From: Macrostomum lignano
Lineage: Eukaryota
Length of the DNA stretch: 64,000 nucleotides
Assembly (NCBI GenBank): GCA_002269645.1
Contig: NIVC01002146.1
Coordinates: 136,668 to 200,667 of the forward strand
Reading direction: 5' to 3'
Within the stretch, counting starts at the first letter, position 1, and every line of letters starts with the position of its first letter. Both the position numbers and the translations under genes were made by a program. Positions 13,191 through 61,269 of the stretch are shown here, one piece after another. The notes under the pieces were generated by a model, which ran no database searches, was not told where the DNA came from, and worked only from the letters and a program-made list of their open reading frames with translations.

Positions 13191-14191
13191 TCCTAAAAAT
13201 GGCTGCTTCCAAATTGCTTAAATCATAGTCCTCCTTAGGCAGAAAGAGCTTACCAAGAAAAGACGCCACACTGCAAAACTGATATGCATGGCAAAGATGG
13301 CAAAGGACATTCCAGCTTGAGATCTAAGCAGGTGTTGACTGGTATTCTAGATGTGACAGTTTAAAAGCCCAACTCATGCAAACTTTAGGATTGCCATTAG
13401 TTTTAGCGCCATCAGTGATGAAATGATCTAAAGGCTTGTGTCAAAAATGCTTTTTTGGATCAGGAAGTCTTTCAACATATTCAATTTCATGCAGCATGGG
13501 TTCAATTGGCCACTTTTTATATGTCTTATGCTGTGCTAAATGATCCCAATAAGTCTAACGATTGATAGTCATCTTCACACTAAAAAAATGATTGCATACT
13601 GTTTGACTCCATCAGAAGTAGCCATTACAATTGTCTTCCAAGATGGATTCTCCTTTTGGTATTTTTATTTTGTTTCATTCCAATCAATGCATGTCTTTTG
13701 ATACAATTTTAAATGTCTTGTCACTTATGAAGAACACTAGTAGGAATTTGCATTGTTCAAATTGAATGAACATCTAAAATAAGAAATAATGCATGAATTA
13801 GACTTTAGACAACATGTTGTTTTTTTGGCTTATAATTTATACGGATATTTGTTTGGCCCTTTTACTCCCTCTTACATAAATCTTTTAATTCCCACTTAAA
13901 AACTTTTCTTTCTCCCATTCATATAGTCTTCTCCCCTTTCTACCACTTCTATAGTTTTATCTTCTATATCTGCATGTCTAATTTATATCTACTATTCTCC
14001 AATACCTGTCTTTCCTTCTGCTAGAATCTTAGCTAAACTGACTACTTAGATGGGCAATCCTTTTAGGTTATAAGTTAATTCTTAATTCAAAGATAAAATC
14101 CACTTGCTAGGCTGTAAATTATTCAGCAACAGCCATTTAGCCTCCTATTTTGCTTTCATGTATTTTTCATAAATTTATTTTGATCTGGCAG

Positions 14192-15215
14192 GCCGCCCCT
14201 AGGCGGACCAGGCGGTTCCTTTGGTCCAGCGCCTCTGCGTCCGCCGCCGATGCAGCAGCAGCAGCAGCAGCAGCAGAGCTTCCGCGGTCCTCCGCCTAGA
14301 GGTCCTCCACCGCGGGGACCGCCGCCTAACAGCGCCGGAATCCGTAGTGGCGGCGGCAGCGGGGGCGGAGGTGGCGGAGGAGGCAGCCTGCCGCCTATGC
14401 TTCGCGGCCAGCCGCCTCCTGGCTGGCGGCCTCCGATAAGTGGCCCGCCGCCATCGCCGCAGCAGCAGCGCGGCGCTCCCCCGCCGCTTGGCGGCCTGAG
14501 CGGATCCCGGCCGATGCCACCGGGCGGGGTTGGGCCTCCGCAGCAGCAGCAGCAGCAGCCTCGCCCTCCAATGCCAGGCCAGGGTGGCTCCGGCCAGCAG
14601 CAGCAGTCGGGGATGCCACCAGCGCCGCCAAACCTTAGCGTGCCGCCGCCCGGCATGCCGACAGACCGGTCCGGGATGCCGCCTCCGCCCGGCTTCATGC
14701 CCTCCGGCCCGCCGCCGCCCACGCCAGTCTCTATGGTTGGCGGCGGCTCCGGGGGGCCGCCCGGCCAGCATGCCATGCAGCAGCCGCCGCCGCACATGGC
14801 CTCGCCTATGGGTCTGCGCGGGGCCCCGCCGCCCGGCATGCCACCGCATCGGCAGCAGGCGCCGCCGCAGCATTTGATGCCGAATCAGAATTCCTCCTCA
14901 TCCGGGATGATGCGGCCGCCTATGCCGCACATGATGGGCGGCCCGATGCAGCAGCAGCAGCAGCCTCATCCGCAGCATCTCGGCCCTCCCGGCTACGGAA
15001 TGCCGCCGCCGTCGTTTGGTGGCCCGCCGCCGCCTCATCTGATGGGCCCGCCGCCCAACTCCATGATGGGCGGCGCCCCGCCGCCGCCGCCTCCGCCGCC
15101 GCCAGAGAATGTGTGGGTTGAGAACTGCACGCCGGAAGGAAAGCCGTACTTTTATCATCTGCGCAGCCGCGAGACTCGCTGGGAACGGCCTGAAGGGGCT
15201 CGGATTATGACTCAG
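14192..15215 (+). CDS. TCERG1: TCERG1 exon (Pro/Gln/Gly-rich region + WW1)
   Basis: Acceptor ctggcag|G, donor CAG|GTAGGC; WW1 '[27 protein letters not shown]'. Confidence 0.9.
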
Positions 15216-16584
15216 GTAGGCATGACTGCTCCGATAGCAACCAGACCATGTAAGCTGGCAGACAGATTTAAATACGAGGGGTGATCAAAAAGTTCTGCAA
15301 CCTCTTGTTATAGCTTTTAATTATAGAATCGGCAAAAGCCAAAAACTTACACATATGCGGCTATATCTGTTTGCTATATTAATATGCATTTTTGGCTTCC
15401 AAATATGCTCCAGTCAAATTTCAAAGCCATATATTTTCCATGTGTTTTCAGTAGCTGATGGAAACATCAAAAGACAGCGTTCGCTTCTATATCTTTATGT
15501 GCATGTAACTTGGTTGCAAAGTGACTGAGATTCACACCGATCTGGTGAATGTTTTAGCTAACTCTGCTCCATCATTTGACACGGTTGCCCGCTGGCTGCG
15601 CCATTTCTTGGAAGGCTGGCACAGCTTCAACGCTGAACCGAGGTCTGGCCGACCCCGCACATCCGTGACCGAAGATGTCGTGGCCCATGCCAATGCAATA
15701 ATTCATGAGTATTGGAGCATTACGCTAAGATTCCTTGCCTATGAGCTTAGTGTCAGCTATGGAAGTGCTCATAACATCATGCATGAGCAACTGGGCCGCA
15801 CAAAGACCTGCGCTCGGTGGGTACCCCATCTTCTCACTCCGGAGCAGCAAGCAGAGAGGGTGCGCATCTGTCGCTTGTGGGTGCAAATGTTTGAGCCCCA
15901 CGGCCCACGACGACTGTCGGATGTCATCACAGGAGAAGAATGTTGGATCTCCTTCTTTTACCATGAAGGATAAGCAGTTTAACATGGTCTGGCTGGCAGA
16001 AGATGAGCCCGAGGCCCAAGGTGCTGAAGACCGGATTCCGCAGTCGGAAGCGGATATTCACCATTTTTTCAACTCTCAGGGTGTTGTATCGGTAAACATC
16101 CTTCCAGCGGGTGCCACAGTGACTGCCAGGTACTACACAGACACTGTTCTGCCAGGCGTGCTGCAGGAGCGGCAGGAACGTGCGCGAACCAGACATAGAC
16201 CTCGACTCCTGCTGCACCATGACAATGCGGATCAAATCCGTCATTTCTGGGAGGCCGTTTTCACACATACAAGACCTTGACCAAGCGGTACATTCAGCTC
16301 TATCGGGTATACCAACTTCGGAGTACCATGACTGCTTTCAGACATGGTGCATACGCATTGCGATGGTGCATAGATAGTGGTGGAAAGTACTTTGAGAGAA
16401 TGTGACACTGATTAGACGCCGTGGTTGCTGTAACACTGAGTTGTGAGGTCACTTGCAGAACTTTTTGATCACCCCTCGTATGCAATAGGAATGTAGGTAA
16501 CCGATTAGTAAGATGATTAGTAAGATGAAAGCGTATAGCCAAATCGTGAGGTGGTCAGACAGATCTGCTGATAATAGTCATGTG

Positions 16585-16650
<66 letters not shown>

Positions 16651-19600
16651 GAGACGCTGCACCATTTTTCAGGCGGAGGTCGACGCTGTAGCCGAAGGCG
16701 CCCCTCCAGGCGCGGCGGCTGGCGGCCCCATGTCTGCCGGAGGGTCGGCCGTCCGATCCGGCATGCCGCCGGCGACTTCGGCTCCGCCTCTGTTCGGCAT
16801 GTCCGGCGGGCTGCTAACCATGAGCCAGCAACAGCAGCAGCAGCCGCCGCCGCCCAACGGTCCCGCCAAGCCGCCAGAAGTGGCCGAATGGGCCGAGTAC
16901 CGGGCGGACGATGGCCGGCCATATTATCACAACCTGCGCACCAGCGAGACCGTCTGGGAGAAGCCGGCCCCGCTGCTAGCCTGGGAGGCCGGCGGCAAGC
17001 CGCCTGCGCCAGCCGCGGCACCGCCGCCTATTATGAAAGAGACTCAGGCGGCGGCTTCCTTGACGGCGGCCAAAGATGGAGCAGTTCCGACCAGCGTTGC
17101 CACGACTGGCGTCAGTCAGCAGGTGGCGGAGGTGGACAAGCGACAAGCGGCTGCTCAGTCTCAGCAGCAGCAGCAGGACAAGTCCCGGCCCGTGAAGAGC
17201 CAGCCGGTGCCCGGCACCCCCTGGTGTGTTGTTTGGACAGGCGACGATCGGGTGTTCTTCTTCAATCCATCCAAGCGGCTGTCGCTGTGGGACCGGCCGG
17301 AGGAGCTGGTTGGCGTCAAGGAGGTCGAAAAAATTCTCGGCAAAGGCGCGGCAGCGGAGAAACGCGCGGCCGGCAAATCGGCCACCGGCGCGTCGGCAGC
17401 TAAAAAAAAGAAAGTCTCTTCTGCTAAGCTTGATACAAAAAAGAAGAAGACCGCCGACGGCCAGAAGAAGAAGAAAAGAAAGCGCAGCGGCTCGGACGAC
17501 GACGATGACGATGAAGAAGACGGCGAATACGACGAGTCCGGCACCGACGAGGACGGCGACGATTCCAATGACGACGACGACGATGACGATGACGAGGATC
17601 GAAGAAAGGCGAAGCGGCGCCGCCGGGCCGCTGCCGAGAAGAAGCGGCAGCAGCTGCAGAAGAAGCGACGCCGAGACAGCGGCAGCAGCGGCTCTAATCA
17701 GGATGACGACGACGAGGACGACGATGAGGACAAAGAAGACAAGGAGGACGAGGAGAACGAGGACCTCGGCGAAGATGACGATGACGACAAGCCGCTGCTG
17801 GAGCGGGACAAGATTGAGCCGGGAAAGGTAAACGCGTTCGAGGCGGAGGTGCAGGCGGCGCGGGAGCGGGCCAGCCTGCCGTTGGACGCCCGGATGCAGC
17901 AGTTCCGGGAGATGCTGGCGGAGAAGCAGGTGTCAGCTTTCAGCACTTGGGACAAAGAGCTGCACAAGATCGTGTTTGACCCGCGCTATCTGCTGCTGCC
18001 CAGCAAGGAGCGCAAGCTGGTGTTCGACCAGTACATGAAGGAGAGGGCCGAGGAGGAGCGGCTGGAGAAGAACAGGAAGCTGAGGGAGAAGAAGGAGGCC
18101 TACAAAGCGCTGCTCGAGGAGGCTAAAGTTAGCGCCAAGTGAGTAGCGGATTAGTTTAGTTTATTAGTGATTTAAGGTAAAGGCCATTGTTCTAACTTTT
18201 TAAAAAGGTATATGGAAAATGCCTTCCGTAAAATGCCTTTGTAAATATCAAAGTCGTTTTCGCACTACCAAAGTTGGCCAATTTATTAGCAGACTCAAAT
18301 CCAGTGTTTCACGCATCCTATCTGTACAGGTGTCGTTTTCAAAACTTATTCTGTTGAACAGAACCTTGCTTACATTGAAAAAACGAAGACACAAACACTG
18401 TTGCGAGAGTGAGAAAGTAGATCACTGTAAGAATATTGGTCGGTGCCAGTCAGACTTTTGACTAAAAATACTTGAATCGATGTACATAAAAACACAAACC
18501 TAGTCTCAGTGGGGGCCCATCACAAGCTCGAAAAATCACATCGTCGAAAAGTTTAGCAACCACCATCACAAGCTCGAAAAGTCACATCGTCGAAAAGTAG
18601 GGTTACGGTTTAGGGTTAGGTTAGGGGTTAGGGTTAGGTTAGGGGTTAGGGTTAGTGTCTTAGGGTTAGGGTTCAGGGTTAGGTTAGGGTTAGAGTTGGT
18701 GCCTTAGGATTAGGGTTAGAGCTAGAGATGGTGGTTGCTAAATCAGTTTTCGACGATGTGACTTTTCGAGCTAGAGATGGTGGTTGCTAAATCAGTTTTC
18801 GACGATGTGACTTTTCGAGCTAGAGATGGTGGTTGCTAAATCAGTTTTCGACGATGTGACTTTTCGAGCTAGAGATGGTGGTTGCTAAATCAGTTTTCGA
18901 CGATGTGACTTTTCGAGCTAGAGATGGTGGTTGCTAAATCAGTTTTCGACGATGTGACTTTTCGAGCTAGAGATGGTGGTTGCTAAATCAGTTTTCGACG
19001 ATGTGACTTTTCGAGCTAGAGATGGTGGTTGCTAAATCAGTTTTCGACGATGTGACTTTTCGAGCTAGAGATGGTGGTTGCTAAATCAGTTTTCGACGAT
19101 GTGACTTTTCGAGCTTGTGACTTTTCAAGCTTGTGATGGTGGTTGCTAAATCAGTTTTCGACGATGTGACTTTTCGAGCTAGAGATGGTGGTTGCTAAAT
19201 CAGTTTTCGACGATGTGACTTTTCGAGCTAGAGATGGTGGTTGCTAAATCAGTTTTCGACGATGTGACTTTTCGAGCTTGTGACTTTTCAAGCTTGTGAT
19301 GGTGGTTGCTAAATCAGTTTTCGACGATGTGACTTTTCGAGCTTGTGATGGAACCCTGTTTACGACGATGTGATTTTTCGAGCTTATGATGGCGACCCGT
19401 CTCAGTGCTCAACTGCAAAATTGCTTTAAACTGTTCTTGCTTGAGTCCAATTTATTTATTAATAGTTTAATCAACAGCCAGTCGCCCTGCAGATGACTAA
19501 CCCGTTGAAAACTTTACCGTGCTTAGGAGAGTCGCAAAAAAGTCGTCCTAAATTCGTGTTAGCGCTTAACTTTCTACCAACTCTAGTAGACTCGATCGAT

Positions 19601-34682: not shown

Positions 34683-36465
34683 ATGGCGCCGCTAGCGTCT
34701 TCGCAGCCGCACGACTTTGTAAAATCGACTGACAGTGACGGAGATGCGGTCTGTAGCAAGCCTTTGACGGTGAGAGTTTTTGTTAGTGTATGTTGGATGT
34801 TGGATTAATGCTTTTAATTGTGACAGTATTTATCATGGTTTTATTTGTACTTTGTAGGCTCCTGCAGTGACTATTTCGGAACCGGAAGTGGAGGCAAAAA
34901 TCGAGTCACGGCTTGATACGAAATCGAATTCGGTAGCAAATCCGGAGAATGTATCGGCAGGACTGGAAGTAGCGCCTGAAATTCCGAAAGAAGCAGAGCT
35001 AGAAGCGGCGCCAGAAGTTCCACAGGAAGAGGAACCTGAAGTTCCGCCGGATGTTCCACAGGAAGAGGAACCTGAAGTTCCGCCGGATGTTCCACAGGAA
35101 GAGGAACCTGAAGTTCCGCCGGATGTTCCACAGGAAGAGGAACCTGAAGTTCCGCCGGATGTTCCACAGGAAGAGGAACCGGAAGTTTCGCCGGATGTTC
35201 CACAGGAAGCGAAACTGGAAAGGACGCCGGAATCGGGAAGAAAAAACGAGGAAAATTCTGCTGATTCCTTGACGACAGCTAACCCGATTGCTGTCCAGGC
35301 TGCCACCCAGGGCGACCCGGAGCTGCACCGGCGGCTGCTGGAAGCCGAGGCCCAGGTTGCGCGCCTGGTTGAAGAGAACGGTCGCCTGCGATTCGATGTG
35401 GACTGCTCACACCTGGTGTTCGGCGAATTCGACCGCTGCCTGCGCAGGCTCAACGAGCAGAAGCTGACAGGCGATCGACAGGTTGAAGGCATTCTTAGGG
35501 AGAAGATTCAGGTAAGATATTCTCATCCATGTTTTCTGCATGTTTGGTATATGAGGATAAGCGGTTTTATATTATGCCGCTCTGTCGCATGGCAGGCTCT
35601 CGAGGATCTCCGATCGATGGAGGCGGCATTCACCGAGTTGCATAGGCGCTTCGAACGGTCAAAACTGGTTGTTGAGGCTCTGCGAAATAAGGAGGCTGCA
35701 CTTAATCGGTGTGCGAGCGAGTGTCAGGTTAGTAAATGTGCAGGGATGTGCCGATATGCCAGTGAGAGGGGCGATGCTGGTGAGCAGGGAGAGGAGATGC
35801 CAGTGAGAGAGGGGAGATGGCAGTGAAAGTGGAGAAGCCAGTGAGAGAGGGGAGAAGCCAGTGAGAGGGGAGGTGCTAGTGAGCAGGGAGAGGAGATGCC
35901 AGTGAGAGGGGAGATGCCAGTGAGCAGGGGAGGAGATGCCAGGAAGAGGGAACGGAACTGTCATACGTTAAGACCGGGATGGATCAAATAGGTTTTCTGT
36001 GAGATAGATGGCAAGCAAGGAAGAACGAGAAAGCAACCCATCATCTAAGAACCATTTTCTCGTAAAATTTTTGACACAATCAATAAAGTAAATGGTAGCA
36101 TGGTAGTCTGAAAGATAGTTAATAAACATATGTAGAGCACTGCATCAACGTCGACGACGTTAATTGTTTAAACAAAGCCAACACCTGACCTCACCTGACA
36201 GACTCGCCTCGCGCGCAACGAGCAGCGCTATCACGATTTGAAGGCGCTCGCCGAGACCCGGCTGGAGGCGGCCAGCCGTTACTTGGCTGAGCAGCGCCGC
36301 GCCGCCGACGCTGACGTGGCCCGGCTGCAGGCGGTGCTGCGCAAGGCGGAGCTGCGAACTCACAATCTGCAGGCTGAGCTCGACCAGCGGGTGCGGGAGA
36401 ATGCCGAGCTCACGAGCATCTGCGATGAGCTCATTCGTCAGGTGGGACAGGATAGTGACGCCTGA
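34683..36465 (+). CDS. TACC: TACC-domain (transforming acidic coiled-coil) protein, 4 exons, ~378 aa; start codon uncertain
   Basis: Exons 34683-34769, 34858-35511, 35596-35727, 36202-36465 join in phase 0 via GT-AG introns. 'DLRSMEAAFTELHRRFE', 'EQRYHDLKALAETRL' and 'ENAELTSICDELI' match the TACC coiled coil; acidic 12-aa repeat EVPPDVPQEEEP. Confidence 0.85.
35760..35945. repeat. Purine-rich short tandem repeat in last TACC intron
   Basis: 'ccagtgagagggg', 'ggagatg' units. Confidence 0.75.
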
Positions 36466-37696: not shown

Positions 37697-39002
37697 CGAG
37701 GGATACTCCAAAAGTTTTGCAATTCAACCACTTGCGCAAGTCGCACAATCTTCAAAACCAACTCTCTGTACAATAAACATGTACATAGTCCCCACCTCAA
37801 TTTTCAAGTGAATTCATACATATACGCCTGCTCAGCCCCCAGTCAAAGTCAGAGACTCCTTAACTGTACAGCTGCAGCCATGGAATTGAATCGTGAGCAG
37901 AATCGGCTACTAATTTGGTACTGCCACAAGCGAAAGCTCACGGCGCTTGAGACTCATGCCGAGCTACTAGCAACATTGGAGGCTCAAGCGCCGTCATATG
38001 CTACGGTTACACGCTGGTACCGCGAGTTCCAGGCCGGCAGGACCAGCTTTTCTGACGACCCCCGGCCCGGGAGACCTCCGACAGCAGCGACGGAGGAAAA
38101 CATCGCTGCAGTGCAGGAGCCGATTCATCAGGATCCGCGAATCACCACGGACATGCTAGCTATGAATGTCGGCATTGGATCGGCAGCGGTCGATACGATT
38201 CTACACGATCACCTGAGAGTCAGGAAGCTTTGTGCCCGATGGATACCCCACATCCTGACAGATGCTCAGAAACAGGCCCGCAGGGAGTTCTGTCAGTTTC
38301 TCATCGATCGATATGAGCACGGGAGCCATCAGCGCCGCTCTGAGGTCATCACTGGTGATGAGACGTTTCTCTATCATTTTGACGTCGAGACAAAGCGCAG
38401 CAGTGCAGAGTGGGTGCCGAAAGGTGGTCAACGACCCCTGAAAGCAAGGCGGTCCCGGTCCCAGGGCAAGCGGATGTTTGCCATCTTCTTCGACTCACAA
38501 GGCGTGGTGGCGATGGTGAAGCTGGAGGGTCAAGCTACAGTCACTGCTCGATGGTACACTGAAGAGTGCTTGCCAGTCGTGATCGACAGCGTGACCCAGA
38601 GGGCGCCAAGGACGGGAATGCGAGGGCAGAAACTTCACCATGACAACGCCCCCGCCCACACGGCTGCTGCAACTCGAGCGTTCCTGGACCAAGAGGGCAT
38701 TTCAACACTACCACACCCGCCCTACTCACCAGACCTCGCCCCTGCGACTTCTGGCTCTTTCCAGAAATCAAAAAGTCGCTTAGGGGGCACAGGTTTCAGT
38801 CCGACGAGGAGCTGGAGCAGGCGGCGAAGGAGGCGATTGACGGCATCCCAATTGAAGACTTCCAGGGCTTGATGAACAAGTGGCTCGGACGACGCACAAG
38901 TGTTTGCAGTTCCGGGGAGCCTACTTTGAAGGATTGTAATAGAAAAGTTTGGCAAAATTAACTTTAAATAGTTGAATTGCAAAACTTTTAGAGTATCCCT
39001 CG
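37697..39002 (+). mobile_element. Full-length mariner (DD34D) transposon
   Basis: 32-bp TIR CGAGGGATACTC[C/T]AAAAGTTTTGCAATTCAAC (1 mismatch), TA TSDs at 37695-96 and 39003-04, 1306 bp. Confidence 0.95.
37880..38939 (+). pseudogene. Mariner transposase with two apparent 1-nt deletions near the 3' end
   Basis: ATG 37880 'MELNREQNR'; WIPHILT, TGDET, HDNA, YSPDLAP; +1 C at ~38740 restores PCDF with 34-residue D-D spacing; second shift at ~38895 restores 'KCLQFRGAYFEGL*'. Confidence 0.9.
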
Positions 39003-49249: not shown

Positions 49250-49426
49250 AGCAAGCATCCCCCAGATAGCAAACATCCCCCAGATTGCAAGCATCCCCCA
49301 GATAGCAAGCATCCCCCAGATAGCAAGCATCCCCCAAATAGCAAGCATCCTCCCGATAGCAAGCATCCCCCAAATAGCAAGCACCCCCAGATAGCAAGCA
49401 TCCCCCAGATAGCAAGCATCCCCAAA
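49250..49426. repeat. 18-bp tandem repeat (ATAGCAAGCATCCCCCAG), ~10 copies; resumes after 61157
   Basis: Period 18; a further partial unit 'gtaagcatccaccag' follows the MITE right end. Confidence 0.9.
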
Positions 49427-49584
49427 TATAGCATTTCCCGGTCAATTTGGTCCTAGAAGCACTCAATTTAATCCGCAATAGAGAATTCCAATTCATTCCA
49501 CCGTCACTAGAGATATGTCTATGGCCAAATATGCTGTTTCGTTCCACTCAATTTAATCCTGGGGGCACTTATTTCGCGTATTTA

Positions 49585-51782
49585 TGATGTAACCACGCTC
49601 TGGTCGCGGGATAGGGCATGGGAACTTTTTTGAAAGTGCCTCCTATCCCGTGCACCCTCTGCACAGAGCTGTCGAGACTCGGCCAGGTCTCCGACCGGGC
49701 CTGGAGACTCCCGCTCTGCTGCACCCCTCCTGCTGCCTTGGTCCCGTCTCTCCTGCCGCCACACCTGCCTTTCCGGAGCCCCTACCCCTTTCTGTACCTC
49801 CCCCTCTACCCTATCTCTTCTGTTCCCGCCCTATTCTTCCTGTACTTTCTCTACCTCCTCCCTTTTTTTGTCTCCCTCTGCACTCTTTTCCTGCGCTGTC
49901 CCCTCTTTCCCTGTGTCTACTTACAGTACTTTGTGTGCTCACCGTCTCCCCATCCCCTCTCAAACTCCCAAACGGTGACGCAAGTCGTGTGACCCCTTCT
50001 CCCCCTCGGTGACTCATCGATGACTCATCCCCCTCTCTTGCGCAACCTTTTCTCACGCTATTGTTCTCCTTCCCAAATTTCTCATGTGACACCCACCCCA
50101 CCTCCGCTTCTATTGTTCTCGTTTTTGCTTCTTTTGTTCTCTCGACCCCACCAATTATCACATTTTCTCCGATTTTCTCTTTCTTTTGTTCTCGTTTTCG
50201 CACCTAATTATCACCTTTTCTCCAATGTTTACTTTTCCATTGTTCTCAGTTTTCCCCAATTATCCCCGATTTCCAATTCCTTTGTTCTCGACCCCAGCCC
50301 TATTGTTCTCAATGTTTGCTTGCGCAACACTTTCGCGACCACCCGCTGCGCCAATTATCCCCCACCCCACCTCCGGATTGCGCAATTTCCCGATTTCTCA
50401 TGTTGCTATGCCGGTCTCATGCTTCTCATCATGACTCATTCTGACGTCATTCTGCCGGCAGCCAATCAGAGAGAGGGAGCCATGGTAACGACCTTGAGGA
50501 GGCGGCTGTGAGGTCTATAAAAGGAAGCGATTTCGGCATGAGAATACTCAACTGAGTTTATCTCTGTTCCTCTCCTCGTCCTTCTTTGGACTTGCTGTCA
50601 GATTGAGTTCTGACCCATTCGTCTATAAGACGAATCCCTGCCGGTCCGCGGTCTGTTACCGCCAAGTTATCCTTAGCTCCCCAAGTGAGCTCGCCTATCG
50701 GCCAGCGGTCTGATACCGCCCAGCATCATCAGCATCGCCTGATCTACATCAGCGCCTCGTCGCTCCAGCGCATCGCCGCTTCACCGTCTGCCTGACTGCA
50801 GCCTACAGCCGCCCTCGGTCACTCCGCCTCTCTCTCTCTCTGTGCAGCTGCCGGTAAGTTCCTACTACTAATTTGGGCTCTAATTGCCTTTGCTTATCCG
50901 GGGTTTGCCTATTTTCCATTGTCTGATTAGAGAGCTGAGCCAATTGTGATACCGTATCTTTTGCTGTATTTTACTCAATAGTGAAGCCGCCTAATTGCCT
51001 GCTTATTTGCCTAAGGGCCTAATTATTAACTATTAACTAACTTCATCATTATTCAATCTTTCACCATCATTTCACTCATGGCTTGCTAAGCCTTTCTCCC
51101 GGGGTGGCAAAGCATAAGGAAGTTTGGGTAAGCTAATGGCCTCTCCCCGTGCAAAGCCCGCCTGTGAGTGCGTGCTGCGGGGCCGCGTGTGCGTGCAGTA
51201 GAGGGATTAGCGAGTCTTGGCACAGAATGGCAGTAGGAAGGTTGCAACCCCATGCTAACGCGTCCCTTCGCCATGTTCGCCATGTTCGCCTCATACTACT
51301 CTTAGTAATCAAAGTCGCAAGTCAGCCTCGCTCACAGCCACAAAGGATCCCCTGCTGAGAAATCCTCCAGGATTGAGCCCAGAGTTCCCGATCATGCCCC
51401 AAGCAGAGTCCCTGTACTCGGCTGCATGCGTCTCCCCTGTTAGCCTAAATCCCCTGGTAACCAATCCAGGCGGGGCTCTAGCCTCGAGAGGTCTGGTAGA
51501 AAGATCCAGGTGCGCCAGGTCACATAGAGTGGTGGCAGCCACTCGGTCATACCATGACCGAGTGACCAACTATTGCACCTTGGCTACAGGTGGGGTCCAT
51601 GTGGGTCCTTGGCCCTCTGGTCACGAAGCGCTACCAAAGCTACTAATCATGTGGGCGGGACAGTCTGGTGCTGGAGGTCCGTCAGGTCATTGCCCGGTCA
51701 TAGGCAGCCTACGGTCATTGCCCCCTCTAGCCATGCGTTCGTCTCTCTACGGAGCGGACAGGCGACGAGGGCGGTTACATCA
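49585..51782 (+). repeat. 5' LTR (2198 bp)
   Basis: Direct repeat of 58661-60874; CCAAT at 50462, TATAAAAG at 50516. Confidence 0.95.
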
Positions 51783-51785
51783 AAA

Positions 51786-51803
51786 TGGTGGCAGCGGTGG
51801 GAT
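51786..51803 (+). promoter_or_regulatory. Primer-binding site complementary to tRNA-Leu 3' end
   Basis: TGGTGGCAGCGGTGGGAT, 3 nt after the LTR; complements the conserved eukaryotic tRNA-Leu end ...AUCCCACCGCUGCCACCA. Confidence 0.85.
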
Positions 51804-54152
51804 CTGGTGCAAACAGCGCTGAGTTTCGGACTGGTGGTTTAGATGTGACAAGCGCACCTGTGGCATCCCTCAGAATGGTGGCCGAAGCGCAAAGAGTGCC
51901 ATGTCTAAATCTACCAATCGTAAAAATCGCCAATCGTCATTCTCTTCTCCCATGGCGTGAGGCAACAAAATCCAAAAATATTAATGTAACTTTTCAAATT
52001 TTTCGGGCTGCGAATTCGTTCAATTCATTCGAAATTTCCAAATTCATTCATTCGCCAAAAGCCCCTGATTCAATTTAAAATTAATTTAGCCGATCAGTTT
52101 CAGCGCTAGAAAGTGTGAAGTGGTAGACGAGCGGATTTGATTACAATCAGAATAGCTACCTGGTAACGGAGTGTGTGAAGAACTGCGAAAGTGAATTTTC
52201 CGGACTCACTTTCTATTTCATGGTAATATGCTTTATTTCCCCTCCCTTTCTTTCTCTCGCCTAGCCTACAGCAGAACTGTGTGAGTGTTGAGGTGGACAG
52301 CCAGCCAGGTACGGAAGCCTCATCACGCAAGCCAGGGAAGCTGGAAGCGAAGCATTTCTTTCCTTTGTCCTACCTCTTTCTTTTACTCGGGGGAGTGTAA
52401 CAGTCGCTCTCCCTGATCGCTCAGTTAATCCTAGAAATGCGTAGAGACCGGAGCGTGTTTTGTTTGTCCATTAGAATGAACAGCTATCAAGGGCTATGGG
52501 GAACTCGCTATATATGCATAGTAAGGGAAGCAGTAGTCATGGCCTTGGAAACATTGGGGGATACCAAAGTCTCGCAGGAATGGGAATAGCGGTGTGATTG
52601 TATCTCTGTAGGGTATCAGTGTGACTCAAAAATCTCGGGCTAAAAAAAGTGTCACCTCCTATGGAATACCTGCGATCAGCCCGGACCTGAATTCTGCGGT
52701 AACCCCTGGTGCCTTCATGGCTGGGATTCGATCCCAACGTGTCTGCTGACTCTCCCCACTGTATTGCAGACCCGGTAGTAACTGCTTTGGTTGCATTTGG
52801 GCTGGTGCAGTGGCTGGAAATAGTAGATCCCATAGTATCCTATTGATAGTGGAGTTCAGTGAGTATTGGAATGGTGTACTGGAAGTCTGGTGGCCCCCAG
52901 TGATCTCGTAATGTTTCCTGCTGCATTCTCCTCCTTTAGTAATTCCTCCCCCCTGCTGTCAGTCTGATAGGGGAGGTGGGTGTGCCAATCAGCCCGACCC
53001 GGTAGAACGGCGCTCCTGCCCGACTTGTCAGCCTGGCCCAGGAAGGCGCTATTGCGCAACTCTTTTCCCCTCTGGCCACTGCAGCCCACTAAGCGCTTAG
53101 ACGCAGGGTTGCATGCAGTCCCCTAATGTAAAGCCCCGGTACATAGAGTGCCACCCCAGTGCCCCGCAAGGTCAATAAGACGGGTTGACGTCTCTGGCAA
53201 CTTGGAATAACCTAGATGGAGGTACCGCTGTCTCCTGGTAGAACCGGGCGTTCAAGTACAGTAAAGTGGAGAGGCTGACAACTGTAGGACTTTCTCCGCC
53301 ATCAGATAAAGGTCCCAAGTATGCTATTTCGAGCTGCAGCAAAGGTGGAGTATCGGAGGGGCAAGCATTTCAGGAAGATACTCACTTAGGTCTGTTTATC
53401 CTAGGAAAGCGGGCGAGAGTTTCAGGCTTGTAATCCGCCTAACCTGAAAACTTCGGGGACAGTTTAGTCTGGACTCCCGCTGCGCGCCTTCGCTCTGAAC
53501 AGAAGGGGAGGTCTTGGTTTTTGTGGATTCTGCTAGACGTAGGGGAGCTGGATTCCCGCCTTTTGTGAAGCTGCGTGTACAAGATTGGTAGTCCTGAGGT
53601 GGAAGCCCCACTGGACTCCGACGGTTTTCCGGCTGTGCAAGGGCAGTAAAGTGGGAGGACCTCCATGGGGATTGCTCCCGCCACTTGGGTTTTTGGGTCC
53701 AGGCGCCAACGCTTCTTCGTAGTGCTTTCTTAAGGAAATGGGGTCCGGCGCGCAACCCTAGGGGAGAATTTGTACAGGTGCCGTAAGTCCGTTTACGGTC
53801 GGCATTTGGGTTCCCTAGCATGGCCGCAAAATGAAGGTCAAGTCTCTCTGAATAGCCAATTTTTCCCTGTCAGGATGTGCCATAGACAACTGGTAGTGGT
53901 AGCCGCAGTTTGAGTCAGTGTGCTTTGCCGAGTGAAGCCGTTAGGACTGCCTAAATGGAATTATGTGGAGCCACCCGTTTTTCAATTTGTTTTCTTCGAC
54001 GCCGCAAGTATGTGGGTTTTGTCTGTGTTTGTGTGTGTGTGAGTGTGTTTGTGTGTTTCGGATCAACTTTTCGGTCTTTACCTGTAGTTGCCCCGGTTTT
54101 CTTTTCTTTTCCTTCCCGGTGGTGGGTACTCCCCCAGCTATCCGGCATTCAC

Positions 54153-55457
54153 ATGTCACGGGCGCGTGGAGATAGGGTCGTAGAAGCTGTGTGCGCAGAC
54201 GCCCCTGGTCAACCACCCTCGGCCGCTGACACCCCAGCAGTTGCCGCCCCCGCAGCCGCAATGGCCGCAGCCGCTGGTAACCAGGTCCCTCAGCCTCCAG
54301 AAGCAGTAGTAGTTGAGGAACCAGATGAAGGAGTAGCAGCTCCCGCTCCCAATCAGGGTGGCGCAGCAGCCGCCGCTGCTCCCCCGGACGCAGCCCAGAA
54401 TCCTCCTCAGGCAGTCCCGCAGCTAGGAGACTTAGTTGCCGCTATAGCCAATGCGTTTAACCAGCTAAACATGGGCCAAGACGCCCAGAGGCCGAAAATC
54501 TACGTAGAAAAGTTCTCTCCCGGCGAACACTGTTTTGTGCAATGGGTAGAGAGAATGATCTACAAGCTGGACGCGGAGAGAACTGTAGGAGATCAGGCTA
54601 GGAAGCAGGTGCTCATCTCGCACCTCCCAGGTGAATTTCAGAACTTAGCCTTAGGATTGGACGGGCAATTGCCCTTTGAGCAGTTCGTATCTAGATTAGG
54701 AGAGCAGTTGGGCGAGGCCAACACTGATCTGGCTAAGAGAAATAAGCTGAAGAATCTGAGCCAGAAACCCGGCCAATCACATAGTGCTTTTGCTGCTATG
54801 ATAAGATCTCAGATAACGGCCATGTTTCCTCAGATTCAGGGTGAGCAGAGAGAACAAGAAATCGTGTACACCTACTTGGAACACGCTAAGCTCCCCCGCC
54901 AGGTCAGACAAGATCTGTTGAGCCGTCGCTGGCAGACAATTGAGCAGGTGTTAGAACAGCAGCAAGCCCTGTTAGAAGCCGCAGACTTAGCCGGGAAATG
55001 GGACAGTAGTGGCCCGCCCAGGTCTGAGTCCCGCACCGAAGTCCGTCTGCAACCTCAGCAGCCACCCAGGCCCCCTCGCAAGTGGGTCAGGATGGTGAAC
55101 CAGGAAGCTGACGAGACGGAGGAGGACGGTGACGGCCTATCAGAGATGCAAGAGAGGTTGGGCGCGCTAGAGCAAACGCAAAAGGATCTGCGCAACCAGC
55201 TGGTGCAGCTCAATGAAACTATGAAGGCGACAGCAGAGTCTGTTGCCCAGCTGCCCCAGCAGATGAGGCCCCCTCGCCCCGCCACTCCCAACAGGAACTG
55301 GAGGCAGGGGCAGGGCGGCTCTAATAGCAGTAGGAACTGGCGCCAACCCCAGCCCCCGCCGCTTGCAATTCAGGAGGCGCCCACGCCGCCGGCGCCGGGT
55401 GTGCAGCAGCAGCAATTGCAGCTTCGTGCGCCACTGATCGCCATAGGCAAGATTTAG
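54153..55457 (+). CDS. Gag (retrotransposon capsid-like); probably extends to ~55593 if two 1-nt deletions are corrected
   Basis: Ala/Pro-rich N-terminus, capsid-like 'KFSPGEHCFVQWVERM...LKNLSQKPGQSHSAFAAMI', then a coiled coil; ATG 54153 follows a strong acceptor. Confidence 0.8.
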   Translation: MSRARGDRVVEAVCADAPGQPPSAADTPAVAAPAAAMAAAAGNQVPQPPEAVVVEEPDEGVAAPAPNQGGAAAAAAPPDAAQNPPQAVPQLGDLVAAIANAFNQLNMGQDAQRPKIYVEKFSPGEHCFVQWVERMIYKLDAERTVGDQARKQVLISHLPGEFQNLALGLDGQLPFEQFVSRLGEQLGEANTDLAKRNKLKNLSQKPGQSHSAFAAMIRSQITAMFPQIQGEQREQEIVYTYLEHAKLPRQVRQDLLSRRWQTIEQVLEQQQALLEAADLAGKWDSSGPPRSESRTEVRLQPQQPPRPPRKWVRMVNQEADETEEDGDGLSEMQERLGALEQTQKDLRNQLVQLNETMKATAESVAQLPQQMRPPRPATPNRNWRQGQGGSNSSRNWRQPQPPPLAIQEAPTPPAPGVQQQQLQLRAPLIAIGKI

Positions 55458-55574
55458 AGGAGTGGGGCAGAGATATGTTAGACGAGGCTACCAGGGAGAG
55501 GCAGGAGAGGCTCGCCCAGCTGCGCGCGCAAGCTCTGATGCCTCCTCCTTCCACGCCTGAAGAGCCCCGGGTTC

Positions 55575-55637
55575 GGGAAACCCGTGGGAGGGCTGAATGG
55601 CCCGGCCCGAACTCAGCCCCGTTCCCTCTCTAGGGCC
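55575..55637 (+). promoter_or_regulatory. Putative -1 programmed ribosomal frameshift signal (GGGAAAC + pseudoknot)
   Basis: Slippery heptamer 55575-81; stem GGGCTGA (55590-96)/TCAGCCC (55613-19); loop GGCCC can pair with GGGCC (55633-37); the -1 frame is the protease frame. Confidence 0.7.
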
Positions 55638-56099
55638 CAGCTTAACCTGCCACGTCCGCCCAGCAAGAAGTTTAGATTTGAGAAGGTACCCGATTTCTAT
55701 CAGCCAAGACCAGCTAGAGGACAACGCGGGAGAGATATTGTTGTAGAGTTGCCAATTGAGAATGTTCCCACCCGCCTCCTGGTAGATGGGGGCAGTGCGC
55801 TGTCTTTGCTAACAGTCAAAGACTTTACTAAAATTACCGGACAGAGTGTGGAGGCCCTGGAGCCCCCATGTGTGAAGGCCGTGTCCTACACGGGCAATGA
55901 ATTAGAGATGCTAGGCCAGGCCACCCTCACAGCAGTTATTGGGCTAGAAGAGGTGAGAATCCTCTTTCTGGTCGTTGGCAATTCAGCAGCAGTTTCCCTC
56001 CTGGGTAGTGCTTTTCTAGCCAGTACGCATGCTATCATAGACTATCGAACAGAAAAGGTTTACTTGCTAGGTGTGAGTCTCCCATTCGACCCCCGCTGA
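55584..56099 (+). CDS. Retropepsin-like aspartic protease domain
   Basis: 'VELPIENVPTRLLVDGGSALSLL' and 'SLLGSAFL...AIIDY'; active site reads DGG rather than D(T/S)G; stop TGA 56097-99. Confidence 0.8.
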   Translation: MGGLNGPARTQPRSLSRAQLNLPRPPSKKFRFEKVPDFYQPRPARGQRGRDIVVELPIENVPTRLLVDGGSALSLLTVKDFTKITGQSVEALEPPCVKAVSYTGNELEMLGQATLTAVIGLEEVRILFLVVGNSAAVSLLGSAFLASTHAIIDYRTEKVYLLGVSLPFDPR

Positions 56100-58643
56100 G
56101 TAACAGATCGGTAGCTAGCCAGTGATTGCTTAATTCCCCCCCCCGATTCGCGTGTCGAAATTTTGCTCGTGTTGCCCCGTTGGAGACCGCTTTTCGCGTA
56201 TTTACGTATGCCCTCTATTACTCGAATTTATGTTGTGACCTCGTGCTCGTTGGTGTTGTTTAAATATCTAAGATTTTAGCTCGAAAATTAGGCCCGTACA
56301 GTATGCGTTAATTCCCTATCAGTAAATATTAACTTGGAAACTAGTAAAATTTCTATGGGTCTGCTCCACAGGAGGTCCTGCCCCGCTGTTTAAGATTTTC
56401 TGGGAACAATGGAAGTCTGGGACCGTAGGAAATTAGCACCTTTAGGTCTGATTTCGTGTGTTTGTTCACACTTTGTGAAAGTCCGATTTTGGGAAACTTT
56501 TAATTGGTTTCGATGAGGCAATAGGGGGGGCATTCAATGTAATTAAGTTTATCAGGCAAATGGGGCAGCAATTAGTTTAGAGTAGGCCAGTGGTTTAGTC
56601 AATGTAAAGTCAGGTAAGTAATTAAAGTCAAGTTATGGGGACAGATAGTTCAGAATTAGTAAGTAAGCATTAAGAACCACCAGCATCAGCAGTTGGGAAG
56701 CCGCAGAAATAGCTCCAAGAGCAGTAGCCAGTGCATTGTGAGACCGGCTATTAGGGCCGTCGACAGCACGACCAAATGCCAGGAGCCGTCGGTCTCCACC
56801 ACAGGGGTTGGCAAGGGCTGTGGAGCGGCAGCCACGGGCGTCACCGCGGCGACCGGCGGCGGAGCGTGCGCTCGGGCTGACAACGGCGGTGGTACCGGAT
56901 GCCAACCGGCCCCGGACGCTGGTTCGCTGGCGGCCCGGCGGTCGCATGGCCCGGGAGCCGCGGCGCCTATGCACCAGATGGCGCAGCCGGCCCAGAATCA
57001 GAGGGGGCGTCCGGCTCTGAATGGCTGTCTTCGGGCGCTTCGTAGTCGGACTCCTCTTCAAGGATGGGCTCGGCTACTAGCGGCCGGAATCCTGAAAATG
57101 AGAATTTAAGGGATGAAATAGAAGTAGGGAACTAGCCGGGTATTAGGATGTAGATAGATGGGGATTTTAACTTTATGGCGTGTGGTAGTGGCCTTCCTGG
57201 GGGTTTCTTCCTTTCTTCATTCCCTCTCCTTCCCTTGAGCTCTAGGTGATCAAGTAGTGGTAGCCTTCTTCCCGCCTTCTTTTAATGATACACCTCTAAG
57301 TGATGGCAGTTTTTCGTCTTCCTCTCCTCTGGTAGAAGGGCAAATGGTGGCAGTTTCCCCGGGCAATCCACTCTAAGTGGTGACGGGTTCCCTCTTTCTC
57401 TTCCCTGTTAATGTACAATTGGTGGCAGTTTTCCCTAGCAACCTCTCTCAAAATGGTGGCTGATCCTCCTTTTCTTTTCTTTGGTAATGCGCCAAGATGG
57501 TGGTAGGTTCCCCTTTCTCTTTTATAATAGTACATCAAACTGGTGGCAGTCAAATTAATGATTAATTCCTCTTTCGAATTCTTTCGGCTGTTAAGTTTAT
57601 GAGGGTCTCGGAGGCATGGATGAGAACTGCGTGCGCGTGGCGTTGAAGGAAGAAATCGAAGGGAGTTGGGCCGCATCATCATTTATCCTCCGGAGTCTAA
57701 TCTCCCAAATCCCTCTTCTATTCATATTATTAAATATTGTTTTCTAATATGCATTTTACTAATAATATACGAGTCTTGTTGTGTCATTATCAAATTCATA
57801 AAAATGTCTGTGTTGGCTCTCACTCTTTACCGTAAGAAAGACATATATTATTACTGCAATTGGCTCAGTTTAAATGAAAGGCATGGCGAGTGGGTAGATT
57901 TCGTTTAACGTATAGGCGAAAGGAAATCAGGTTGGTGATGGGACTTACCGAGTAGTTGTATAGTTTGGAAAATCGCGCTGAGTGCCTTGGTTGGAAACTG
58001 CGACTCCGTGTAGGTTGCAGGCAGCCGGCTCCCGTTATCAGTGGCGCCTTTTATACAGTGGCCAGCGCACGGCGCGGCGCCTCCCAGCCTACAACCGATC
58101 GCCCCGAAGCCCTCTGACTGGCTGAAGCGGGGTCCGAGCCTTCAAGGACGCTAGGCCTCCGTGCGGTTGAACTCCCGGCGAAATTAGCTTATTAATTTAC
58201 TGCGCTGCATTAGTATTTTTCCCCTGTGTAATCGTCATTCTCCCCGAGGCTCTGCCCTTGGCTGTGTGCTAGCAACCCTTCCCCCCTTCTTTTTCCCCAC
58301 TTCCCTCACCCTTCCCCGTTTCCTCTCTTTCCCAGCTGCGCTTCTATCCAATTATGATAATTTATTGTTGACAATTCGCTATTTTTCTCCCTACTATTGC
58401 GCTGTCTGTGTTTCCCCCCTCCCACTTTAGCCACAGCAACAGTTGAAATTTTTGAAATTCTGTATTGCACTCCAACCTATGTATCTCGTGTTGTGAATTT
58501 ATTGCTATCCCCTCTATTTTATCGCCTTTTTCCATTCCCGCTCGCGGTTTGTTAATTCTGTGATTTCACGTTCGGTTGAGATCCCGCTCCCGTCTGTGTG
58601 GTTCCATGTTGGGCAGTGATGATGACGGAACCAGTTCCGTCAC

Positions 58644-58660
58644 AAAAGGCAGTGGGGGTG
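58644..58660 (+). promoter_or_regulatory. Polypurine tract
   Basis: AAAAGGCAGTGGGGGTG directly before the 3' LTR. Confidence 0.75.
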
Positions 58661-60874
58661 TGATGTAACCACGCTCTGGTCGCGGGATAGGGCATGGGAA
58701 CTTTTTCGAAAGTGCCTCCTATCCCGTGCACCCTCTGCACAGAGCTGTCGAGACTCGGCCAGGTCTCCGACCGGGCCTGGAGACTCCCGCTCTGCTGCAC
58801 CCCTCCTGCTGCCTTGGTCCCGTCTCTCCTGCCGCCACACCTGCCTTTCCGGAGCCCCTACCCCTTTCTGTACCTCCCCCTCTACCCTATCTCTTCTGTT
58901 CCCGCCCTATTCTTCCTGTACTTTCTCTACCTCCTCCCTTTTTTGTCTCCCTCTGCACTCTTTTCCTGCGCTGTCCCCTCTTTCCCTGTGTCTACTTACA
59001 GTACTTTGTGTGCTCACCGTCTCCCCATCCCCTCTCAAACTCCCAAACGGTGACGCAAGTCGTGTGACCCCTTCTCCCCCTCGGTGACTCATCGATGACT
59101 CATCCCCCTCTCTTGCGCAACCTTTTCTCACGCTATTGTTCTCCTTCCCAAATTTCTCATGTGACACCCACCCCACCTCCGCTTCTATTGTTCTCGTTTT
59201 TGCTTCTTTTGTTCTCTCGACCCCCACCAATTATCACATTTTCTCCGATTTTCTCTTTCTTTTGTTCTCGTTTTCGCACCTAATTATCACCTTTTCTCCA
59301 ATGTTTACTTTTCCATTGTTCTCAGTTTTCCCCAATTATCCCCGATTTCCAATTCCTTTGTTCTCGACCCCAGCCCTATTGTTCTCAATGTTTGCTTGCG
59401 CAACACTTTCGCGACCACCCGCTGCGCCAATTATCCCCCACCCCACCTCCGGATTGCGCAATTTCCCGATTTCTCATGTTGCTATGCCGGTCTCATGCTT
59501 CTCATCATGACTCATTCTGACGTCATTCTGCCGGCAGCCAATCAGAGAGAGGGAGCCATGGTAACGACCTTGAGGAGGCGGCTGTGAGGTCTATAAAAGG
59601 AAGCGATTTCGGCATGAGAATACTCAACTGAGTTTATCTCTGTTCCTCTCCTCGTCCTTCTTTGGACTTGCTGTCAGATTGAGTTCTGACCCATTCGTCT
59701 ATAAGACGAATCCCTGCCGGTCCGCGGTCTGTTACCGCCAAGTTATCCTTAGCTCCCCAAGTGAGCTCGCCTATCGGCCAGCGGTCTGATACCGCCCAGC
59801 ATCATCAGCATCGCCTGATCTACATCAGCGCCTCGTCGCTCCAGCGCATCGCCGCTTCACCGTCTGCCTGACTGCAGCCTACAGCCGCCCTCGGTCACTC
59901 CGCCTCTCTCTCTCTCTGTGCAGCTGCCGGTAAGTTCCTACTACTAATTTGTGCTCTAATTGCCTTTGCTTATCCGGGGTTTGCCTATTTTCCATTGTCT
60001 GATTAGAGAGCTGAGCCAATTGTGATACCGTATCTTTTGCTGTATTTTACTCAATAGTGAAGCCGCCTAATTGCCTGCTTATTTGCCTAAGGGCCTAATT
60101 ATTAACTATTAACTAACTTCATCATTATTCAATCTTTCACCATCATTTCACTCATGGCTTGCTAAGCCTTTCTCCCGGGGTGGCAAAGCATAAGGAAGTT
60201 TGGGTAAGCTAATGGCCTCTCCCGTGCAAAGCCCGCCTGTGAGTGCGTGCTGCGGGCCGCGTGTGCGTGCAGTAGAGGGATTAGCGAGTCTTGGCACAGA
60301 ATGGCAGTAGGAAGGTTGCAACCCCATGCTAACGCGTCCCTTCGCCCTGAGCAATCTAAACTGTAGACAGTACATGTTCGCCTCATACTACTCTTAGTAA
60401 TCAAAGTCGCAAGTCAGCCTCGCTCACAGCCACAAAGGATCCCCTGCTGAGAAATCCTCCAGGATTGAGCCCAGAGTTCCCGATCATGCCCCAAGCAGAG
60501 TCCCTGTACTCGGCTGCATGCGTCTCCCCTGTTAGCCTAAATCCCCTGGTAACCAATCCAGGCGGGGCTCTAGCCTCGAGAGGTCTGGTAGAAAGATCCA
60601 GGTGCGCCAGGTCACATAGAGTGGTGGCAGCCACTCGGTCATACCATGACCGAGTGACCAACTATTGCACCTTGGCTACAGGTGGGGTCCATGTGGGTCC
60701 TTGGCCCTCTGGTCACGAAGCGCTACCAAAGCTACTAATCATGTGGGCGGGACAGTCTGGTGCTGGAGGTCCGTCAGGTCATTGCCCGGTCATAGGCAGC
60801 CTACGGTCATTGCCCCCTCTAGCCATGCGTTCGTCTCTCTACGGAGCGGACAGGCGACGAGGGCGGTTACATCA
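58661..60874 (+). repeat. 3' LTR (2214 bp)
   Basis: Direct repeat of 49585-51782. Confidence 0.95.
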
Positions 60875-61269
60875 TTTATTTTAAAAGCCGTTAATAAGCA
60901 AGAATGAGTGACTCGGAAAGTAGCGCCAGTTTCTGAACAACTTAATGCTTACAAATCAATGCGTCAATCTCTTTTCTTTAAAAGTAATAGCTTTTAAAAT
61001 AAATACGCGAAATAAGTGCCCCCAGGATTAAATTGAGTGGAACGAAACAGCATACTTGGCCATAGACATATCTCTAGTGACGGCGGAATGAATTGGAATT
61101 CTCTATTGCGGATTAAATTGAGTGCTTCTAGGACCAAATTGACCGGGAAAAGCTATAGTAAGCATCCACCAGACAATAAGTAGCTAGTGCAACAATTTCC
61201 TTAGCTCTATAGTGGCTCCTTTAAAATTGGCATGACGCTTACTTTTACGTTTAAAATTGTGTATCTTTT

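Follow-up and report, generated by a model that had tools for sequence, protein, structure and literature searches.

The 64,000 nucleotides of Macrostomum lignano analysed here (assembly GCA_002269645.1, contig NIVC01002146.1, positions 136,668 to 200,667 of the forward strand; hereafter the window, with position 1 as its first letter) contain an 11.3 kb long terminal repeat (LTR) retrotransposon of the Ty3/gypsy type, which encloses the junction between a gag open reading frame (ORF) and a protease ORF (Table 1). The features by which Ty3/gypsy elements are recognized are present, namely LTRs with TG...CA ends, a target-site duplication, a primer-binding site and a polypurine tract, together with a gypsy-type gag and a retropepsin, all of whose matches are distant. 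This LTR and target-site anatomy, as well as the identity of gag and protease, can be taken as established. For the order of reverse transcriptase (RT), RNase H and integrase and the RT phylogeny that define the Metaviridae, no counterpart was detected in the 92 frames of the element that were searched, and the element is filed as a non-autonomous derivative. Taken jointly with the reading of the junction developed below, which combines -1 slippage with two breaks of register, it is likely to be a recently inserted, non-autonomous element of Ty3/gypsy type (Metaviridae-like) coding for Gag and an aspartic protease only.

Table 1. Features of the LTR element and its gag-protease junction, in window coordinates. 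Register is the codon start position modulo 3.
Feature	Position	Strand	Remarks
Target-site duplication TTTA	49581..49584	+	second copy 60875-60878
5' LTR	49585..51782	+	2198 bp; ends TG...CA; TATA-like box ~50515; strong splice-donor-like site 50854
Primer-binding-site-like 18-mer	51786..51803	+	begins TGG; 3 nt past 5' LTR
gag ORF	54261..55457	+	register 0; open from 53955 on; probable start ATG 54261, context good
Capsid-like core of gag	~54420-54980	+
Predicted coiled stretch of gag	55113-55260	+
Break 1, coding signal register 0 to 2	55429..55455	+	likelihoods of the 12 best change-points differ by no more than 1.2 nats
Coding-like helical peptide TDRH...PEE	55433..55564	+	register 2
Protease ORF	55539..56099	+	register 0; retropepsin type; closing stop
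Break 2 (inferred), register 2 to 1 for heptamer use	55561..55575	+	limits set by the heptamer and by the register-1 stop 55558-60; likelihood flat
Slippery heptamer G GGA AAC	55575..55581	+
Spacer	55582..55589	+	8 nt
Stem 1	55590..55619	+	GGGCTGA 55590-96 / TCAGCCC 55613-19; 7 Watson-Crick bp; 16-nt loop
Possible stem 2	55599..55637	+	5 G-C bp; loop GGCCC 55599-603 or 55604-608 with GGGCC 55633-37
Purine-rich tract upstream of 3' LTR	58643..58660	+
3' LTR	58661..60874	+	2214 bp; 98.8% identity to 5' LTR

The gag and protease products

The gag product resembles PNMA and retrotransposon-gag clusters (Atlas score 0.93), the matching clusters being rich in molluscs. A phmmer search of 1.84 billion representatives returned four matches (best E 9.6e-8, 23-29% identity), all of which carry PNMA or Retrotrans_gag domains, and a named Macrostomum protein was aligned by BLASTP at 28% identity over 236 amino acids. 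The Pfam PNMA model reached E 0.044 only, a regular-expression search detected no Cys-Cys-His-Cys (CCHC) knuckle in gag, and a PDB search with the capsid core gave no match. The protease frame matches ASPRV1 in the PDB (E 1.1e-7) and retropepsin clusters (Atlas score 0.95), with the Pfam family gag-asp_proteas at E 0.023, under its cut-off. Its catalytic motif (55797-55805) reads D-G-G where ASPRV1 has D-S-G; the D-G-G form is present in some plant gypsy proteases. The protease may be active; a single-sequence fold model of it reached a predicted local distance difference test (pLDDT) value of 33.

Searches for further coding capacity covered 92 stop-free frames of at least 35 amino acids from both internal regions, 5' and 3'. 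None of these frames matched a family of RT, RNase H, integrase or env, and one gave an unrelated sub-threshold match. No pol match was detected downstream of the protease stop. Searching the window by tblastn with the named Macrostomum protein gave nothing at E<=1, gag included, and is too insensitive to serve as a test for pol. These results agree with an earlier model-made annotation of the same DNA (hereafter the original prediction), in which the element was held to make Gag and Gag-protease only.

Registers at the gag-protease junction

Gag and protease share register 0, in which stops at 55455, 55479 and 55536 intervene; the first of these, TAG 55455-57, ends gag at 55457. Two further pieces lie between the two ORFs: a peptide TDRHRQ...PEE in register 2, open over 55334-55633 and closed by TAG 55631-33, and a piece RAPGSGNPWEG followed by a stop in register 1, open only over 55561-55596. 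The GGA codon of the heptamer GGGAAAC stands in register 1, so that a -1 slip there enters register 0, the protease frame. Two aspects of this arrangement need no assumed break: the protease register has been open since 55539, ahead of the heptamer, and register 1, the zero frame of the slip, closes 13 nt past it. Read-through of stop codons to the protease is ruled out by the three register-0 stops, and re-initiation at the protease by the want of a Met ahead of the catalytic Asp, the sole Met of that ORF sitting past this residue; because of these stops and the missing Met, no other route to the protease than slippage is left. Slipping by +1 or -2 from register 2 on the GGGAAAC run was discounted by eye, since the first positions would be mismatched. 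As assembled, ribosomes translating gag would end at 55457 and never reach GGGAAAC in the right frame, and the frame that delivers them to the heptamer is restored only if two breaks are assumed.

The register-2 peptide was assessed with three-periodic coding models, trained either on the gag and protease of the element or on an unrelated host exon. Over 55433-55564 register 2 wins by 11.0, 11.8 and 29.7 nats with element-trained models of orders 0, 1 and 2, and by 15.2, 20.4 and 19.0 nats with those trained on the host exon. The element-trained models called 10, 10 and 11 of 11 held-out blocks correctly, and the register-2 margin was reached by 0, 0, 1 and 0 of 202 non-coding control tiles and by 3, 9, 14 and 2 of 2,000 base shuffles. 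A single-sequence model folds the peptide as one helix (residues 2-34, pLDDT 89), which is weak evidence. Pfam returned nothing better than E 0.055 for it, and it does not match the named Macrostomum protein. At least one register break is thereby well supported. The second is inferred from the cassette, because its use needs register 1, a point on which composition does not discriminate.

The original prediction fared unevenly in this region. The gag stop, a helical-looking frame beyond it and the entry of a -1 slip into the protease frame had all been described and were found again. It had also placed GGGAAAC in the zero frame of gag, which holds only if two breaks are assumed, whereas natively gag shares the register of the protease. 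The restoration by a single C at ~55432 and another at ~55565 could not be upheld in that exact form, as the likelihood is flat over 55429-55455 and over 55561-55575 and the bases are not derivable.

The frameshift cassette

The heptamer is the only one of the form XXXYYYZ in 55000-56099, and GGGAAAC is counted among the most shifty heptamers (PMC5009743). Of the elements expected of -1 programmed ribosomal frameshifting, the site shows a high-efficiency XXXYYYZ heptamer, a -1 ORF open across it and a stable structure 5-9 nt downstream, here a 7-bp stem at 8 nt whose pairing probability is context-dependent. The stem reported in the original prediction is present, with the register-1 stop TGA (55594-96) in its 5' strand, and its loop is able to pair downstream as had been suggested, leaving 9 or 4 nt between the helices and a 13-nt long loop. 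The H-type pseudoknot claimed there stands in the loose sense that this pairing could form, but not as a compact fold: such folds occupy less than 35 nt with 0-1 nt between the helices, and the present one takes 48 nt with 4 or 9. The generous interhelix range of 0-10 nt given in PMC3835772 covers these values. Formation of stem 2 is possible, judging from five G-C pairs in the sequence, and hairpins have been reported as able to replace the pseudoknot of simian retrovirus 1 (SRV-1) (PMC3203594).

The combination of heptamer and stem 1 is real, in that it exceeds chance. When 55458-55740 was shuffled 20,000 times with dinucleotides preserved, a heptamer of any kind arose in 3,679 shuffles and one whose -1 slip enters the protease register in 1,292; adding stems of at least 5 and 4 bp reduced the count to 81, stems of at least 7 and 5 bp reduced it to 3, and a top-class heptamer with these strict stems did not occur. 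As the strict thresholds were set after the site had been seen, 81 in 20,000 is the safer figure, and on either count the claim of a -1 cassette of SRV-1 or PEG10 type at this junction is sustained. When the heptamer was held fixed, 7 plus 5 bp appeared in 16 of 5,000 downstream shuffles, and 4 of the 493 natural heptamers in the window, the GGGAAAC site among them, have a comparable fold. With the loose stem and loop ranges of PMC3835772 and G-U pairs allowed, the energies of the two stems sum to -29.9 kcal/mol. This value was attained in 8 of 2,000 shuffles and at 6 of the 2,223 starts sampled in the element, the cassette being one of the six; the cassette ranks first among the 29 heptamers on the plus strand of the element, the runner-up having -17.2. 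By analogy, the junction cassette would be expected to work like the -1 signals of PEG10 and SRV-1. Because the frame that should deliver ribosomes to it fails as assembled, it is not filed as functioning in the assembled copy.

Possible origin of the register breaks

The LTR pair offers a measure of how the sequence has changed. The two copies differ by four one-base run lengths, two isolated substitutions and one complex event of ~26 nt, in which a short tandem duplication at 51273-51280 of the 5' LTR stands opposite ~26 other bases at 60347-60372 of the 3' LTR. One-base indels make up an assumed 10-20% of natural changes, and given this share, four run differences out of six would arise with P 0.001-0.017; this excess leans towards assembly error. 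At the LTR rate, 1.0-1.7 one-base slips are expected over gag-protease, and the probability of at least two is 0.26-0.50. A mariner transposase elsewhere in the window (37886-38940, Mos1 E 4e-39) has no premature stop and two register switches near its C-terminus, directly after YSPDLAP and near 38885-95, in the same direction as the breaks at the gag junction. Homopolymer errors are known to cause false frameshifts in nanopore assemblies (10.1101/866020). Altogether, assembly error is held to be somewhat more probable than real decay as the source of the two breaks. The original prediction had ascribed them to sequencing errors or recent mutations, and one-base slips are indeed plausible in view of the ratio of run-length differences to substitutions in the LTRs.

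Proposed expression of the protease and its alternatives

The family to which the element belongs probably makes Gag and Gag-protease by -1 slippage, the assembled copy holding two one-step register breaks. In a working member, translation of gag would continue along the helical peptide of register 2 as far as G GGA AAC. The majority of ribosomes would terminate at the TGA located in stem 1, releasing Gag, and a minority would pause at the stem or pseudoknot 8 nt downstream, slip back by one base at the cassette, as in analogous systems, and make Gag-protease, the product of the slip adding a linker of ~45 residues plus the protease. The rarity of slippage would set a high ratio of Gag to protease. 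Because pol is absent, the element would have to borrow RT and integrase, which may be supplied by an autonomous partner through trans-mobilisation. Among animal retroelements, pol is reported in the -1 frame in 28 of 51 cases and in the +1 frame in 2 of 51 (PMC5009743), and the interpretation fits this -1 bias of animal LTR elements.

Several observations weigh against it. The upstream ORF as assembled does not reach the heptamer in the zero frame, two independent breaks are required within ~145 nt, and the first of them lies outside any run of at least four bases. In terms of composition, which does not see the step into register 1, a path that includes this step (best 18.8) is equivalent to one that goes straight from register 2 to 0 (best 19.0), and the second break can be fitted anywhere in 55561-55575. 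The phmmer alignments of gag all end by query residue 299 of 398, leaving the junction uncovered. Searches with near-length gag, shorter gag and longer protease queries found no sibling or close homologue at E<=0.001, so that no example of the joined frame has been seen. Nested folding of 55582-55650 gives an unremarkable result (z 0.43, with 136 of 200 shuffles as good), stem 1 has a pairing probability of 0.83 in 55582-55645 and of 0.03-0.15 in longer nested-only folds, and stem 2 is non-compact and rivalled by a nested hairpin. As to assembly error in particular, the exons of a host TCERG1-like gene contain no switch in 2,447 nt, where the LTR rate would predict 2.2 (P 0.11), which would be explicable by selection or by better polishing of unique DNA; the 159-bp arms flanking the element differ by three substitutions and no indel; the register-1 piece of the mariner transposase gives no Mos1 match alone; and the complex LTR difference looks like a repair scar or true mutation. 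The direction of the slips is not diagnostic either, because polishing gave more insertions than deletions in one nanopore study (10.1101/866020).

Other accounts of the junction have to be set beside these points. With a single break, gag would continue in register 2 to TAG 55631-33 and a natural +1 shift within 55539-55633 would lead to the protease, the heptamer and stems being incidental. Such a shift is quite unlikely: it saves one break, agrees with the score of the direct switch and with the openness of register 2 until 55633, but leaves unexplained a cassette expected in 1 in 250 to 1 in 7,000 cases. In addition, the register-2 coding bias fades past ~55580, no +1 site like those of Ty1 or Ty3 was seen by eye, and +1 shifting is uncommon among animal elements (2 of 51; PMC5009743). 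A family with one continuous gag-protease ORF, in which the assembled copy carries two compensating breaks in opposite directions and the cassette is a chance occurrence or a relic, appears equally improbable. Single GAG-Pro ORFs exist, as in wheat Sabrina_SA (PMC9744471), gag and protease natively share a register, and composition permits register 0 to be re-entered directly near 55565-55583; two breaks are nevertheless needed here as well, and the cassette statistics go unexplained.

Splicing provides a further route, whereby Gag would truly end at 55457 throughout the family and the protease would be joined from a gag donor at 55082, of the same phase, to a pyrimidine-rich AG at 55632-33. 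The acceptor-like site at 55633 and the phase-matched GT at 55082 are both present, as are other splice-like sites in the element, but the donor scores low (2.5, compared with 6.5 for that of the LTR, by generic weights), 24 acceptor-like sites in 4.4 kb pass the same filter, and the cassette and the register-2 coding bias are both left unaccounted for, which makes this route very improbable. It is hardly to be believed that the assembly is correct and the sequence is used unaltered, with polymerase slippage or successive programmed shifts from register 0 to 2, 1 and back to 0 passing all three stops. As a trait of the whole family, this would mean gag and protease in one register linked by three backward shifts via two short frames, only the last having a classical heptamer. 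The three steps do total one full codon and would join real coding-like pieces, and three nested products (Gag, Gag plus helix and Gag-protease) would come from one junction; however, no XXXYYYZ heptamer is found at the first two steps and the yield would be that of three rare events multiplied together.

Other features of the element and the window

A number of additional observations concern the element itself. The primer-binding-site-like 18-mer may correspond to tRNA-Leu, the window containing no tRNA. Over 50515-54260, the TATA-like box and donor-like site of the LTR are followed by an acceptor-like site at 54087 and others before the gag ATG, which suggests that gag mRNA is spliced so as to skip the primer-binding site and the 2.4-kb leader. 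A leader tile at 52687-52851 (plus strand) is coding-like with a hydrophobic stretch and no Pfam match, and may be due to chance. A possible antisense unit occupies 56690-58056 on the minus strand in the 3' region of the element, with a TATA-like box near 58050-56, a donor-like site at 57949, an acceptor-like site near 57095 and then coding-like frames; these include an acidic stretch (57090-56975) and, in 56689-56997, an Ala/Pro stretch and a hydrophobic 19-mer, their registers differ, and they have neither a clear start codon nor a Pfam match. A Rfam scan of 49400-61200 gave no matches, and no second internal copy of the element occurs in the window. The element is flanked by inverted arms of 159 bp that are 98% complementary (49427-49585 and 60999-61157), and its insertion site seems to have been the inner end of an arm belonging to a foldback element or to one resembling a miniature inverted-repeat transposable element (MITE).

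Elsewhere the window holds intron-split TCERG1-like exons, a TACC_C match, the mariner transposase and many tandem arrays. The TCERG1-like gene (14184-18142) encodes WW and FF domains (WW_TCERG1 E 1e-31), and one of its introns presumably contains a decayed mariner-like insert (~15300-16450), from motifs recognised by eye. An ORF at 34858-35826 comprises 36-bp EEPEVPPDVPQE-type repeats followed by the TACC_C match (E 4e-8).

Comparison with known systems

Elements that retain gag without a full pol are known from plants. The wheat element RLG_Sabrina_SA is, like the present one, a semi-autonomous gypsy LTR element with GAG and protease only and without RT and integrase, which it has been proposed to borrow (PMC9744471). 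It differs in its plant host and in having one intact GAG-Pro ORF, for which the account available describes no frameshift (PMC9744471). The TR-GAG elements, also of plants, are likewise non-autonomous LTR elements that retain gag (PMC4350172). As described, they are shorter than 4 kb, have a copia-type gag only and were selected for the lack of protease, a definition outside which the present 11.3 kb gypsy-type element with its protease falls.

With regard to the signal, GGGAAAC is reported as the shift site of PEG10, PNMA3, PNMA5 and Rtl3 (PMC11299033) and of SRV-1 (PMC5175198). The gag-pro signal of SRV-1 resembles the cassette in its G GGA AAC heptamer, in a spacer of 7 nt compared with 8 nt, and in two G-C-rich stems (12 bp); the stem energies are -33.7 against -29.9 kcal/mol, summed in similar but not identical ways. 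Betaretroviral gag-pro pseudoknots are described as shorter than 35 nt, with an interhelix loop only in mouse mammary tumour virus (MMTV) (PMC3835772), whereas the cassette takes 48 nt with 4-9 nt between the helices. SRV-1 is moreover a retrovirus with pol and env, unlike the element, in which no pol match was found. PNMA3 and PNMA5 share with the element both a PNMA-like gag and GGGAAAC, and PNMA3 has been reported to shift at ~20% with an H-type pseudoknot (PMC5009743). Their -1 frame is said to code for no known domain, while that of the element codes for a retropepsin.

PEG10 and Rtl3, gag-protease genes domesticated from Metaviridae, correspond to the element in having GGGAAAC, a structure a few nt downstream and a capsid-protease fusion made by a -1 slip (PMC11299033, PMC11011659), and the gag stop falls within the stimulator in both cases, in loop 1 in PEG10 (PMC13622457) and in stem 1 here. 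Henriques et al. describe an extant proxy for the PEG10 clade without the frameshift that its ancestor almost certainly had (PMC11011659). One-base slips in repeats are able to hide recoding signals from annotation. No description of a mobile element with gag and protease only and a -1 signal was found in the literature searched, which left Repbase-type records and most subscription papers outside. The frameshift mechanism is already known, and what is new is its setting in a young, pol-less element; there is about an even chance that this LTR-flanked element shows the plan of capsid, -1 slip and protease in a mobile, non-autonomous element without domestication. PEG10 and Rtl3, by contrast, are immobile mammalian genes without LTRs, whereas the element has two 2.2-kb LTRs and a target-site duplication, a gag nearer to PNMA-type clusters and without the CCHC knuckle, and a slippage that is predicted from an assembled copy which is broken.

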